Of a stretch of 64,000 nt of DNA, positions 7,154-48,462 are shown piece by piece (positions within the stretch are counted from its first letter, which is position 1; each line of letters begins with the position of its first letter). The DNA comes from Escherichia phage HEMP5. The position numbers and the translations under genes were made by a program. Where the stretch lies: sequence record OR424388.1; one strand, written 5' to 3'. Below the pieces are notes generated by a model that was given only the letters and a program-made list of their open reading frames with translations, ran no database searches and was not told the DNA's origin.

Positions 7154-7996
7154 TTAATCAACTGCTATTGGATGAATAGCATTAAACTTATGAAATGCTT
7201 CTGATTTTTCTTTACGTGAAACGCACATGCGAAGAACCTTTAATGGCTCGTCTTCTTCACCCAACGATTTTCGTTTTTCAATATTAGAAGTTTTCCAACG
7301 AGCTTGCTCTGGAAACTCTCTATTGATTTGCTCAAGCGCTCTATTATGTTTAGAATTACTACGAATTGAACTGCACCCGCCAGGAGCTTGTGCTTTTCCA
7401 GATACAACCAGATATTTGAACAAGGCCAAATGCGGATAACCTTGATTAATTAAATTGAGAAATGCATACATATCTTCGCACAAATCAATTTTTCCATACC
7501 CAATTTGTTCTGTCGTAAGTTTTCCGAGGTCATACCATGTATTCGTGAATCCATATGAGTTTTCACGATAATTACCCCAAGATGAAGTAATTTTAAAAAT
7601 TGGTAGGCGAGCATGACCGTGATAATACCCGCAATCCATGGCATCTTCGACGTATTGAATCAATTCATAGAACTGTTCATGAGTCAATTGATTGACTTTA
7701 TCTACACAACGACGGTCATCTCTTTTTCGCATTGAACTCATACGAATAGTAGTATCATCGTCAATCATCCAGATTCGTTGACCTGCATACATATCAGTAA
7801 TTGCTTTACGAGTACCGGCAATTCCGTTTACATCATCAGGAATAGTTACAATTTTAGCTCTAGACCCATAGGCATCATAATAAGCTTTTTCTTCATGTTC
7901 ACGCACTACAATATGGGGTTCATAATCAGTCGGAAACATATCAAGGGCAGAAACTGCCCCGACACGCTGATAACTTGGAATTACGAATTGAATCAT
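7154..7996 (-). CDS. glycosyltransferase with DxD motif, T2/T6 beta-alpha-gt type rather than T4 beta-gt
   Basis: 280 aa from ATG overlapping the gene 42 stop (ATGA); IWMIDDDTTI DxD motif; no similarity to recalled T4 beta-gt although it sits at the beta-gt locus. Confidence 0.75.
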   Translation of the reverse strand: MIQFVIPSYQRVGAVSALDMFPTDYEPHIVVREHEEKAYYDAYGSRAKIVTIPDDVNGIAGTRKAITDMYAGQRIWMIDDDTTIRMSSMRKRDDRRCVDKVNQLTHEQFYELIQYVEDAMDCGYYHGHARLPIFKITSSWGNYRENSYGFTNTWYDLGKLTTEQIGYGKIDLCEDMYAFLNLINQGYPHLALFKYLVVSGKAQAPGGCSSIRSNSKHNRALEQINREFPEQARWKTSNIEKRKSLGEEDEPLKVLRMCVSRKEKSEAFHKFNAIHPIAVD

Positions 7997-8733
7997 TTCC
8001 ACTCACCTTTATAGTCTTTTTTCACAATATGAGTTTCGCCAGTATTCCACCAATGATCAACCAAGTAAAAATGACGAGAATATACATGAAGACTTCCGAC
8101 ATTCCATATAATAGAACCTGCTTTATACTGACGAGTTGAATCGCCGGCATTCAAATCAGATACTAATTTATCTAATACGTATTTTTGCCATGCATAATCA
8201 TTGCGGAATCCGAAGACCACGTCATTTGAGCGCATGCTTACTACTGCATTTACTTTCTTATCACGAATCAGGTACTGTACTGTATTAGTACACATGAAAT
8301 CTGACATACCATCTTTATTGTAGTCAAATTGCATGGATGGACGAGTATAAATCATGATACCACGCCGAGAATCAGGATTTTGACCAAGTTCAGCTAAACA
8401 CATATCATACTGGGCATAGTTATCTTCTGACCAAATAGCCCAACCATAATTCGAGTTAATTTCGCCTTTAGAAGATGCTACCTGCTGCCAAATCTTTGGT
8501 GTTTCACCTGGAATATCTTTAACAAACAAGCTCTTAGATTTATACCATTCAAGTTCGCGCTGAATGTATTCATCATTAAGAGCGCCAAAAATAAACGGTT
8601 CATCTGCTACAAATGATGCGCCAATAATTTCAATAGTTTTAACACCGGTTTTATCAACTACGAAATCTTTTTCTTTTAATGCAAGCCCCAAATGAAGACG
8701 GATTTCTTCAACTGTCATAGAGTCACTAATCAT
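7993..8733 (-). CDS. 42: dCMP hydroxymethylase gp42
   Basis: 246 aa; thymidylate-synthase-like fold; matches recalled T4 gp42. Confidence 0.95.
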   Translation of the reverse strand: MISDSMTVEEIRLHLGLALKEKDFVVDKTGVKTIEIIGASFVADEPFIFGALNDEYIQRELEWYKSKSLFVKDIPGETPKIWQQVASSKGEINSNYGWAIWSEDNYAQYDMCLAELGQNPDSRRGIMIYTRPSMQFDYNKDGMSDFMCTNTVQYLIRDKKVNAVVSMRSNDVVFGFRNDYAWQKYVLDKLVSDLNAGDSTRQYKAGSIIWNVGSLHVYSRHFYLVDHWWNTGETHIVKKDYKGEWK

Positions 8734-25400: not shown

Positions 25401-27214
25401 TGGTGCTTAACCCTATGCATGATTTCTTTATTTTTGCCGAGATTAAATCCGCGTTCGTTCGGATTTCCCAAATAACCACATGTTCTTCTTATTGTGTTCA
25501 TCTTTTTAGGATCAGTTTCTCCACAAATAGAACAAACAAATCCGTTTTCAGTAGGAGTCATTTCATGGGTACTTCCACATGTAAAACATTTATCTACTGG
25601 CATATTAACACCAAAATAATCTAAATGTTGTGCAGCATAATCCCAGACAGCCTCAAGACCTTTTAGGTTATTTTTCATATCAGGAAGTTCAACATAAGAA
25701 ATGTGACCACCTGTCGCAATGAAATGATATGGGGCTTCGCGAGAAATCTTTTCAAACGGAGTAATATTTTCTTCTACTGAAACATGGAAACTGTTAGTGT
25801 ACCATCCTTTATCGGTAACATCTTTTACACTTCCATATTTTTCTGTATCAAGTTTACAGAAGCGATAACAAAGGTTTTCAGCAGGAGTCGAATACAAACT
25901 AAAAGCAAACCCAGTTCTTTCAGCCCACTGTTTAAGACGAGCATTCATTTTAGTTAAAATTTCTTGTCCAATATCACGACCGACAAGAATATTCAATTCA
26001 TGAATACCAATGTATCCTAAAGACACTGAACTTCTACCGTTTTTAAATAACTCAATTATGTCGTCATCAGGTTTAAGACGAACCCCGAATGCACCTTCTT
26101 GATAAAGAATAGGAGCAACAGTAGCTTTAACTCCTTTTAAGGAACTAATTCTACACATCAAAGCTTCAAAACATAAATCCATTCGCTCATTGAACAATTC
26201 GATAAATTTCTGTTCATTGAACTGTGTTCCAATATAAGAATCCAACGCAATACGAGGAAGATTCAGTGTTACAACACCAAGATTATTACGTCCATCAAGA
26301 ATTTCATTACCGGTTGAATCTTTCCACGCACTCAAGAAACTGCGGCAACCCATTGGAGAAACAGGAATAGATGAGCCGGTGATAGCTTTATTGTTCTTAG
26401 CTGAAATAATATCAGGATACATTCTTTTGCTTGCACACTCTAGAGCAAGCTGCTTAATATCATAGTTCGGATCGTCTTTATAAAGATTAACACCTTCTTC
26501 AACGAACATAACAAGCTTAGGGAAAATAGGAGTTATCCCATCACGACCGAGGCCTTTAATACGATTTTTCAGAATTGCTTTCTGAATCATTCGTTCAGTC
26601 CAGTCAGTTCCCGTACCAAATGTAATTGTTACAAAAGGAGTCTGTCCGTTTGAACTAAAGAGAGTATTTACTTCATATTCATAAGCTTGGAATGCATCGT
26701 ATACATCTTTTTCTGTTTTAGATTGAGCATAATTTAACGCATCAGCGATTTGCCATTTTTCTGCATCCTCAATATGTTTTGCATAGGTGCGTTTAACATA
26801 AGGAGAAAGTACTTTATCTACATTCGCAAAAGTCGTTCCGCCGTATTGGTGAGAAGCAACTTGCGCAGTAATTTGTGCCATAATTGCAGTAGCAACTCCA
26901 ATTGATTTAGGAGTTTCAATCTGTGCATTACCTAGCTTAAATCCGTTTTCAAGCATTCCTTTTAAATCTACTAAACAACAATTAGTAAATGGAAGAGCAG
27001 GGGAATAATCAATATCATGGAAATGAATAATTCCGCTTTCATGCGCTTTCATAATAAAAGACGGGACCATATTTTTGGCAATGTGTTTAGACACAATACC
27101 AGCCATAAGGTCCCGTTGAGTTGGAAAAACACGAGAATCTTTATTAGCATTCTCGTTTAAAAGGTCTTTATTAGTTTTATGAATCAATCCTTCAATTTCT
27201 TTTTCAATTGTCAT
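25397..27214 (-). CDS. nrdD: anaerobic ribonucleotide reductase NrdD (glycyl radical enzyme)
   Basis: 605 aa continuous ORF; C-terminal zinc ribbon and glycyl radical motif RRTCGYLG; no intron interrupts it. Confidence 0.97.
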   Translation of the reverse strand: MTIEKEIEGLIHKTNKDLLNENANKDSRVFPTQRDLMAGIVSKHIAKNMVPSFIMKAHESGIIHFHDIDYSPALPFTNCCLVDLKGMLENGFKLGNAQIETPKSIGVATAIMAQITAQVASHQYGGTTFANVDKVLSPYVKRTYAKHIEDAEKWQIADALNYAQSKTEKDVYDAFQAYEYEVNTLFSSNGQTPFVTITFGTGTDWTERMIQKAILKNRIKGLGRDGITPIFPKLVMFVEEGVNLYKDDPNYDIKQLALECASKRMYPDIISAKNNKAITGSSIPVSPMGCRSFLSAWKDSTGNEILDGRNNLGVVTLNLPRIALDSYIGTQFNEQKFIELFNERMDLCFEALMCRISSLKGVKATVAPILYQEGAFGVRLKPDDDIIELFKNGRSSVSLGYIGIHELNILVGRDIGQEILTKMNARLKQWAERTGFAFSLYSTPAENLCYRFCKLDTEKYGSVKDVTDKGWYTNSFHVSVEENITPFEKISREAPYHFIATGGHISYVELPDMKNNLKGLEAVWDYAAQHLDYFGVNMPVDKCFTCGSTHEMTPTENGFVCSICGETDPKKMNTIRRTCGYLGNPNERGFNLGKNKEIMHRVKHQ

Positions 27215-27684
27215 TTTAAACTCTTTCTAAGCTGCTTCTTAAATGAAGCTATTAATTGTGTTTTAGTGTCAGATTCATTATATTCAAATCCTCTTTGAAG
27301 CATCTCAGCCATCATTTCCTCTTTTCCTAAACGAGAAAATTCCTTTGATTTATCTCCAACAAAGTTAGGGTGAATATTATTTTGGGTGTAATCGGATTTT
27401 AAATAAGTAAGTAAATTTTCTAACCATTCAAGATAATCAACACCTTGCCCCTTTAAGCCAGAACGATTAAATTTATGTTTCATTTGACCTTCTGCGGCAT
27501 TGCAGAGATTACAAAGCAATCCACGTACCTTTCCTGCTTTTGGTCCATTTAATTCATGGTCATGATCAAGATGATTAGCTTGAACATCAGGATTTAGTTC
27601 TCGTTGGCAAATTAAGCATTTACCGTTTTGTGCATCATAAAATTTCTGTTTTTCTTCTTTGTATAATTTGCCAGTCAATAACAT
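27211..27684 (-). CDS. 49: endonuclease VII gp49 (Holliday junction resolvase)
   Basis: 157 aa; zinc-binding CxxC...CxxC and HNH-like core; matches recalled T4 gp49. Confidence 0.93.
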   Translation of the reverse strand: MLLTGKLYKEEKQKFYDAQNGKCLICQRELNPDVQANHLDHDHELNGPKAGKVRGLLCNLCNAAEGQMKHKFNRSGLKGQGVDYLEWLENLLTYLKSDYTQNNIHPNFVGDKSKEFSRLGKEEMMAEMLQRGFEYNESDTKTQLIASFKKQLRKSLK

Positions 27685-46209: not shown

Positions 46210-46336
46210 GGCGCATGAATTGTCCGTTTCTGTATTTACCCATTACCGCACTTGGGCTCGACCTTATTACAGGTTGGCGGGAATCCCTCACAGAATCATG
46301 AGGTCCAGCTTGTTCCCATGTTATTTGAATGTAAAT

Positions 46337-46356: not shown

Positions 46357-46935
46357 TTAATTACCACGGGCTGCATTAGCAACGGCATAAGCGTACTGAA
46401 CATTAGCGTCCTTAAACGTACCTTTAGAGGTATCTATTTCTGCCTTAAAGCCGCCTTTAGCCATAACATCGGCAAATTCTTTACGGAAAGCCATTGCATC
46501 AAGACCTTTCCATGATGATTTGTGCTTAGCGAATTCAAGACCAGCGTAGTTGACAGCCTTAGCTAATTTGTTATCAATAACCCATTTACCAGCTTTAGGC
46601 ACAAACACCGGGCCTTTCTGTTTAGAGAACAGTTTTAAATTCCAGCGACGAAGATCACTGTCGGCTTTAACAAAAGCTGCGTCTAAGTTACTAGCAACAA
46701 CATCCTGAATATGGCCAAATTTAAGCCCATCAACTTCAATATTTAGATCGGTACGCCAGCGAAGTCCTTCCCAAGCGAAGGCTTTAAAATCAGAAGCTTT
46801 TGTAGCTAAGTATCGTTCAATAGGGGCTGTTTTAGGGTCAAAGCCGTTTCCACCACGATAAGTCCACTCGTCCTTATTAATGCCTTGAGCTTTTCCTGCA
46901 AAGGCCTCGGCGATAAATTCTTTGTATGTTTTCAT
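46357..46935 (-). CDS. ipIII: internal protein III (capsid-targeted, CTS MKTYKEFIAE)
   Basis: 192 aa; N-terminal CTS; size matches T4 IPIII. Confidence 0.85.
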   Translation of the reverse strand: MKTYKEFIAEAFAGKAQGINKDEWTYRGGNGFDPKTAPIERYLATKASDFKAFAWEGLRWRTDLNIEVDGLKFGHIQDVVASNLDAAFVKADSDLRRWNLKLFSKQKGPVFVPKAGKWVIDNKLAKAVNYAGLEFAKHKSSWKGLDAMAFRKEFADVMAKGGFKAEIDTSKGTFKDANVQYAYAVANAARGN

Positions 46936-46965: not shown

Positions 46966-46995
46966 ATTATACTATATTAATACTTAAGCGTAAAC
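46966..46995 (-). promoter_or_regulatory. T4-early-type promoter for ipIII (-35 GTTTAC, 18-nt spacer, -10 TATAAT)
   Basis: Minus strand; about 30 nt upstream of the ipIII ATG. Confidence 0.55.
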
Positions 46996-47060
46996 TGTTT
47001 AAGCTTTACCGCCAGAAATAATTCCAAAGTTGTTAAAATCGTATCCAATATCGTCAACAT

Positions 47061-47162
47061 CTACTTTAGGACTGCACCAAATACGCGTGGTAATTCACGA
47101 TACTCAGCCATAAGATGTTGGTCGGTCAGTTCAGAAACAAGTGTTAAATTGATACGAGTCAT
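47061..47162 (-). pseudogene. denV: denV (endonuclease V, pyrimidine dimer glycosylase) remnant: first 30 codons then premature stop
   Basis: [31 protein letters not shown] matches the recalled T4 DenV N-terminus, then LK-stop; the remaining roughly 100 codons are absent. Confidence 0.6.
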
Positions 47163-47189
47163 AATTTCCTCCAAGTAGTTGATGAATGT

Positions 47190-47219
47190 ATAGTATCAAA
47201 ACCCTTGGAGGAAGTAAAC
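47190..47219 (-). promoter_or_regulatory. T4-early-type promoter (-35 GTTTAC, -10 TACTAT) upstream of the denV remnant
   Basis: Minus strand; 18-nt spacer. Confidence 0.5.
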
Positions 47220-47221
47220 AA

Positions 47222-48462
<1,241 letters not shown>

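Follow-up and report, generated by a model that had tools for sequence, protein, structure and literature searches.

How an Escherichia phage came to keep only the beginning of a DNA repair gene, and what else disappeared with the rest, is the question raised by a short open reading frame (ORF) in Escherichia phage HEMP5 (OR424388.1). The gene is denV, coding for T4 endonuclease V, a pyrimidine-dimer DNA glycosylase. The stretch of DNA analysed, referred to below as the window, comprises 64,000 nucleotides (64 kb), and coordinates given without another label are those of the window. A first-pass annotation, made from the letters alone, had described here a denV gene reduced to 33 codons and had likened it to the situation in T2/T6-type phages. 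The remnant, the limits of the missing segment and the state of the same locus in related phages are considered in turn.

The denV remnant and its likeness to endonuclease V

The remnant ORF is present at 47162..47061 and lies on the minus strand, a detail that the first-pass annotation had left unstated. It opens with an ATG at 47162 and consists of 33 codons followed by a TAG stop at 47063-47061. Its denV-derived part amounts to 31 codons, and codons 32 and 33 (L and K) together with the stop come from the tail of a second gene, designated ipX, read out of frame. Codons 1-30 minus the last base occupy 47074..47162 (minus strand), an assignment resting on tblastn, Pfam, profile and alignments, and this segment displays no mismatch with RB69, Lutter, Lv5cm, EP32a or TU01. 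The third base of codon 30, together with codon 31 (V), falls inside a microhomology at 47073-47069.

The correspondence of the first 30 codons with the N-terminus of T4 DenV, proposed in the first-pass annotation, is upheld by tblastn, Pfam and the DenV profile, and the T4 sequence given there agrees with PDB 2END. By tblastn, T4 DenV residues 1-33 match the remnant with 94% identity (E=1e-15), and a search of the DenV profile against the six frames of the window returned an E-value of 1.3e-17 over positions 1-33 only. The remnant also passes the Pfam model PF03013 (Pyr_excise) with 28.3 bits for a gathering score of 23 (E=2.3e-6), the match spanning only profile positions 1-35 of 81. In terms of residues, it is identical to T4 endonuclease V (PF03013; PDB 2END and 1VAS) at 30/31 positions and to the DenV of RB69 and Lutter at 31/31, and it shares the early promoter and the Shine-Dalgarno (SD) sequence of T4 denV.

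What has been retained equals residues 1-31 of the solved 138-aa enzyme (2END). Compared with T4 DenV, residues 32-137 (~77% of the protein) are missing and ~23% remains; the complete catalytic domain of ~137 aa found in 2END is thus absent, since residues 32-137 are encoded neither at the locus nor anywhere in the window. The stump keeps Thr2, Arg3, Arg22, Glu23 and Arg26. Among these, Thr2, the N-terminal residue with the alpha-amino nucleophile, and Glu23 have a catalytic role in endonuclease V. The C-terminal WYKYY segment (residues 128-132), which is needed for dimer-specific binding and is kept in Lutter, RB69, Lv5cm and T4, is gone. Judged by its sequence, the remnant cannot be a working member of the Pyr_excise family.

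An intact denV elsewhere, which the first-pass annotation had named among the observations that would count against its reading, does not occur in the window: tblastn and the six-frame DenV profile detected no second DenV-like segment in these 64 kb of the ~168-kb genome. A weak candidate at 27226-27372 was rejected, being the dimerisation domain of endonuclease VII encoded by gene 49 (ORF 27211-27684, minus strand). As a separate observation, DenV residues 56-101 weakly resemble this domain (PF09124), with ~41% over 49 aa and E ~1e-3. Fusion of the stump to the ipX tail by frameshift or read-through is implausible, the tail being in the other frame and no slippery site being found at GGTGCAGTCCTAAAG.

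Endpoints of the deletion and neighbouring genes

A full-length denV orthologue occupies the same position in Lutter, Lv5cm, RB69, EP32a and TU01. The closest annotated relatives match the locus in two pieces spanning ~517 bp more than the window, and global alignment to Lutter reveals a gap of 518 bp (L001 2428-2945, where L001 denotes the Lutter locus) with the junction at window position 47074|47073. The blocks flanking this gap are 927 bp long with 99.5% identity and 774 bp long with 94.6% identity. The same single gap of 517-518 bp appears in a six-way alignment of the window, Lv5cm, RB69, Lutter, EP32a and TU01. The first-pass annotation had suggested an alignment to T4 denV for defining the endpoints; the alignments to relatives place them from AGTCC to AGTCC.

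This 5-bp direct repeat stands at both parental endpoints (L001 2428-2432 and 2946-2950), and a single copy is retained at the junction (47069..47073, minus strand), which can accordingly be placed anywhere from 47074|47073 to 47069|47068. The left copy coincides with denV codons 30-32 and the right copy with ipX codons 62-63. In their immediate context, the parental left endpoint reads gcAGTCCGTAAAc (denV codons 30-33) and the right one aAGTCCTAAAg (ipX codons 62-64), the repeats belonging to a longer, imperfectly matching stretch, AGTCC(G)TAAA, with agreement at 9 of 10 positions and one indel. A microhomology of at least 5 bp is expected by chance with P = 0.0076, as estimated by placing 200,000 junctions at random in this locus. 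The lost segment comprises DenV residues 32-137, the denV-ipX spacer and ipX codons 1-61. Because the join is out of frame, the denV frame ends two codons on: after V31 it reads L, K, TAG, which creates the premature stop.

The initial claim that most of denV is deleted stands (518 bp compared with Lutter), but its restriction to denV does not, as ipX codons 1-61 are lost as well. In the full-length cassette, ipX is an 86-aa internal-protein-like gene downstream of denV, belonging to the family phrog_2667 ('internal head protein') and starting with MKTYQEFITEA, the usual internal-protein targeting motif. It is intact, with 86 aa, in Lv5cm and RB69. In the window, alignments identify its 3′ tail, codons 63-86, at 46999..47068 on the minus strand with the stop at 47001-46999; counting AGTCC, 24 ipX codons remain (47073-46999), in a frame different from that of the denV stump and without a start codon. 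In Lutter, a T-run in ipX (L001 2765-3020) is one T longer than in Lv5cm and RB69, which divides the gene into two annotated 'internal head protein' ORFs, of 41 aa and 51 aa; the record here contains either a frameshift pseudogene or a sequencing error.

On the minus strand, the gene order is nudE, e, the 93-aa internal protein gene, the denV stump, the ipIII-like gene and vs.8. In this order, nudE lies at 48481-48026 and the lysozyme gene e at 47988-47500. The 93-aa internal head protein gene (47222..47503, minus strand; phrog_3499, E=1e-46) is intact, directly upstream of the stump, and is the same gene as Lutter gp128 and RB69p127. Downstream of the stump, the ipIII-like internal virion protein gene (46357..46935, minus strand; 192 aa; phrog_5341, E=1e-117) is also intact, and Pfam Phage_T4_IpIII matches proteins identical to its product. 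Its promoter, which together with the gene forms the next functional unit after the stump, is retained at 46966..46995 (minus strand), with GTTTACG, a 17-nt spacer and TATAAT, and is the same as the one annotated at L001 3024-3053 in Lutter. The distance of 'roughly 100 nt' first estimated between the stump and this promoter is a fair description, the stop being 66 nt from the -35 box (46995) and 125 nt from the ATG (46935).

The denV promoter and start were correctly described as intact. The early promoter (47190..47219, minus strand) matches the one annotated in Lutter at L001 2282-2311 and is invariant in all six aligned sequences; it is made up of the -35 box GTTTAC/TTTACT (47219-47213), a 17-nt spacer and the -10 box TACTAT (47195-47190). 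The SD sequence GGAGG (47172-47168) and the start codon are likewise intact and identical to those of the five relatives. RNA folding brought out a 10-bp inverted repeat within 47166..47213 (minus strand), formed by TTCCTCCAAG (47213-47204) and CTTGGAGGAA (47175-47166), within which the -10 box lies and which pairs with the SD (folding energy -21.8 kcal/mol, z=-3.67 versus shuffled sequences). Such a hairpin may mask the denV SD on transcripts reading through from upstream and leave it free on those started at denV's own promoter. A control resembling this type of SD masking is known for T4 gene e.

Apart from its structure, the retained segment is informative by its lack of divergence. From the promoter through codon 31, 128 nt are identical in the window and the five relatives, and the deletion is therefore recent. 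Taken together, the most probable explanation is that a recent microhomology-mediated deletion turned denV into a pseudogene and removed ipX, a reading to which we assign a probability of about 0.86. The ancestor would have carried an RB69/Lutter-type cassette, with e, the 93-aa internal protein gene, denV (137 aa), ipX (86 aa) and ipIII. One event of illegitimate recombination or replication slippage would then have joined two AGTCC copies ~518 bp apart, in an out-of-frame join, with the denV frame closing after L, K and TAG. Early in infection the phage may still produce the 33-aa peptide, presumably unable to form an enzyme. Expression of ipIII would either stay the same or increase slightly owing to read-through from the denV promoter.

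In T4, deletions and amplifications arise readily at short microhomologies, 6-10 bp being typical (Srikant, Guegler & Laub 2022, PMC9391042). As in the window, a direct repeat stands at the parental endpoints, one copy is kept and accessory genes are lost from a non-essential region; the classical T4 rII deletions are listed with the same microhomology-deletion class. However, the 5 bp seen here are at the short end of the repeats of that study (PMC9391042), in which deletions were laboratory-selected, whereas the window presents one small deletion in an apparently natural isolate.

Another source of variation in the same neighbourhood is PeSL module shuffling (Arbiol 2010; Comeau 2014, PMC4122927), the internal protein (IP) locus being a hyperplastic region. 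The denV promoter fits the T4/PST PeSL consensus TTTACW-N17-TAYWAT (PMC4122927), as does that of ipIII, but the endpoints in the window sit inside coding sequence. PeSL-mediated excision was rejected because both endpoints are in coding sequence (denV codons 30-32 and ipX codons 62-63) and both flanking promoters are kept.

Full-length denV and independent losses among T-even phages

Full-length DenV (at least 80% coverage) is encoded in 1093 of the 1119 phage records with a match, spread over many genera, and the gene is essentially single-copy in relatives, with 1125 places in these 1119 records. This distribution bears on the polarity of the change. That the short form is ancestral, the relatives having gained the 3′ part of denV and ipX by insertion, is suggested only by the formal symmetry of insertions and deletions; it is close to impossible, given that the homology stops at codon 31 in the middle of the DenV fold, that the family is full-length in so many records, and that the long form has two copies of the repeat and the short form only one, the trace left by a deletion.

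Both flanks of the junction were found in 155 records, always split by an intervening segment and in no case (0/155) joined. Among 50,697 phage records, none matches the locus in a single piece or contains the junction, the exact junction does not occur in the viral, genome and metagenome contig collections, and the protein index has no entry for the 33-aa or the 37-aa ORF. Since junction and ORFs are unmatched, the deletion is private to the window's phage, as far as public data show. The same uniqueness would fit an artefact of assembly or sequencing, or a minority variant present in the lysate, with denV and ipX intact in the actual phage, and the stump ORF unmatched in the protein index points the same way. 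Such an origin is improbable: base-calling errors do not produce a clean loss of 518 bp, repeats of 5 bp do not make assemblers collapse a sequence, the junction bears the signature of a biological microhomology deletion, and natural analogues exist in TU01, with the same right-hand endpoint, and in ESCO47, with an independent stump.

Three metagenomic contigs encode exactly the IpIII allele of the window. Two of them (L012 and L013) carry an intact 137-aa denV and an 84-aa ipX beside it, and the third (L014) does not extend far enough to tell. In the two longer Logan metagenome contigs, an extra ORF of 104 aa stands between ipX and ipIII (L012 2659-2973 and L013 1173-1487). It is missing from the window, Lutter and Lv5cm, and the promoter sequence is repeated on both its sides, an arrangement consistent with gain or loss of a PeSL-type module.

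In TU01 (MZ560701), 144 bp have been deleted in frame within ipX, between two copies of the 8-bp repeat GTCCTAAA, leaving a mini-ipX of 38 aa (L010 845-955; phrog_35655). The same ipX deletion of 144 bp, judged by span, is found in phiEC1 and MRostami-2023e, and the long ipX form is kept in ~150 records. The TU01 deletion shares the right-hand endpoint of the window (GTCCTAAAgtag, site C), but its left endpoint is inside ipX (site B) and, unlike the window's, it is in frame and spares denV; the two deletions are independent. Had the parent of the window been of the TU01 type with a short ipX, the deletion could have been ~374 bp instead of 518 bp with an identical product.

A second denV stump was found in the Mosigvirus vB_EcoM_ESCO47 (OM386662), at L007 2501-2629, with 36 homologous codons. 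Like the window, ESCO47 has kept the promoter and an N-terminal denV remnant (~36 codons) closed by a premature stop. It differs in its gene order, which is T4-type (ipIII-ipII-denV-vs.8), and in its breakpoint, at codon 36, leading straight into the vs.8 upstream element. The ESCO47 stump is already decayed (R3Y, R22C, R26C and a different tail) and therefore reflects an older, independent event. Splitting of the ESCO47 denV by a mobile element or an intron was considered and rejected, the next ORF being vs.8-like and Rfam finding no intron. In the same record, a 72-aa 'pyrimidine dimer DNA glycosylase' (L007 3658-3876) gives no Pyr_excise signal and looks misannotated.

The two stumps invite the idea that the remnant is useful, either through a functional 33-aa peptide or through a promoter, hairpin and leader driving the downstream internal protein gene(s). 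The intact promoter, SD and start codon, the stable hairpin across promoter and SD, and the independent retention of the promoter and 36 codons in ESCO47 agree with it. Yet the stump has zero divergence from its relatives, so that there has been no time for selection; the ESCO47 changes at R3, R22 and R26 are non-conservative and, with the different tail, look like neutral decay; ipIII has its own promoter; and two cases make no pattern. This explanation is consequently very unlikely. In a broader version, the 5′ end of denV is repeatedly kept as a regulatory leader for downstream genes and GTCC(G)TAAA is a genuine recombination hotspot, a combination that is unlikely. If the leader part were true, a PeSL-type promoter, an SD-masking hairpin and ~31-36 codons would serve injected-protein or vs genes; if the hotspot part were true, GTCC(G)TAAA, used by two independent deletions, would be e.g. 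a topoisomerase or nuclease cleavage site and not a chance microhomology.

T2 and T6 are classically v-minus phages. Over the syntenic 10 kb examined in each, T2 has the order e, ip4 and vs.8 fragments, the sequence from ip4 to the vs.8 upstream element containing no trace of denV, and in T6 gene e is joined directly to regB. The absence of denV at both loci is consistent with the classical phenotype and, as in the window, no functional denV lies between e and the vs genes; to this extent the agreement with T2 and T6 seen by the first-pass annotation holds. It fails for the lesion itself. In T2, the ip4 module replaces the whole cassette of ip, denV, ipX and ipIII and leaves no stump; in T6, the e-regB join has no stump either, and its breakpoints are not those of the window. 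Conversely, the window keeps the 93-aa internal protein gene, the stump, ipIII and vs.8, an arrangement found in neither phage. With T2 and T6 being whole-module absences with other breakpoints and no stump, the lesion of the window is independent and not of a 'T2/T6 type'. The window is not T2 or T6 itself: the collection contains both phages, and at the denV locus they differ from it. The best matches to the window are ~96% identical mosaics.

The first-pass annotation had also relied on a T2/T6-type glucosyltransferase. This enzyme, a beta-glucosyl-HMC-alpha-glucosyltransferase (phrog_842), is indeed encoded at 7157-8002 (minus strand), in the b-gt position beside gene 42, but it has no bearing on denV. 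It is common in Tequatrovirus and related records, with 471 records at ≥95% identity, and is uninformative on denV status because it co-occurs with an intact gene, full-length denV being found alongside it in NBEco003, vB_EcoM-101117BS1 and PaulHMueller. Inheritance of the classical v-minus state from a T2/T6-like ancestor could thus invoke the missing denV at the syntenic locus of both phages and the shared glucosyltransferase, and is nonetheless extremely improbable: the breakpoints differ, neither T2 nor T6 has a stump, the cassette of the window is of the RB69/Lutter type (with 99.5% identity to Lutter as far as the junction), and in several phages the glucosyltransferase stands next to an intact denV. 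Counting the window, T2, T6 and ESCO47, the T-even phages have lost denV by at least four different routes. PeSL shuffling plausibly explains the T2/T6 differences as well as the extra 104-aa ORF of the metagenomic contigs.

Predicted consequences and flanking sequences

On the preferred reading of a recent microhomology-mediated deletion, the phage is predicted, from its DNA alone, to lack endonuclease V and to be a natural v-minus strain. T4 v mutants, T2 and T6 have the classical UV-sensitive phenotype. A similar UV sensitivity would be expected here, higher than that of RB69, T4 and Lutter, and would be relevant if the phage were stored or applied for therapeutic or environmental purposes. 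The lost ipX product was probably an injected internal protein acting as an anti-restriction accessory, and its loss could narrow the host range with respect to Type IV restriction systems (for context, see PMC12373910 and PMC9391042).

The case is one of clean, very recent gene loss through intragenic microhomology within a hyperplastic region, the IP locus, and differs from PeSL module swapping. Accessory-gene loss in a variable region is an ordinary type of event, of which this is a new instance with well-defined endpoints, and the finding of the denV stump leaves current understanding unchanged.

Around the denV locus, Rfam gave nothing credible and no tRNA or tmRNA was detected. The gene vs.8 is an intact ORF of 189 aa (46209-45640, minus strand; phrog_1488) with weak P-loop/AAA similarity; in T2 (MH751506), it is annotated as two fragments (L005 3761-4121). 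Between the terminator hairpin of ipIII (46354-46337, minus strand) and vs.8, a segment of ~110-150 nt (46210-46320, minus strand; GGGAACAAGCTGGACCTCATGATTCTGTGAGGGATTCCCGCC...) has no Rfam, tRNA or tmRNA match, and the hairpins predicted in it display no covariation among four sequences. The segment is nearly invariant among the window, Lutter, T2 and ESCO47, irrespective of the gene upstream.
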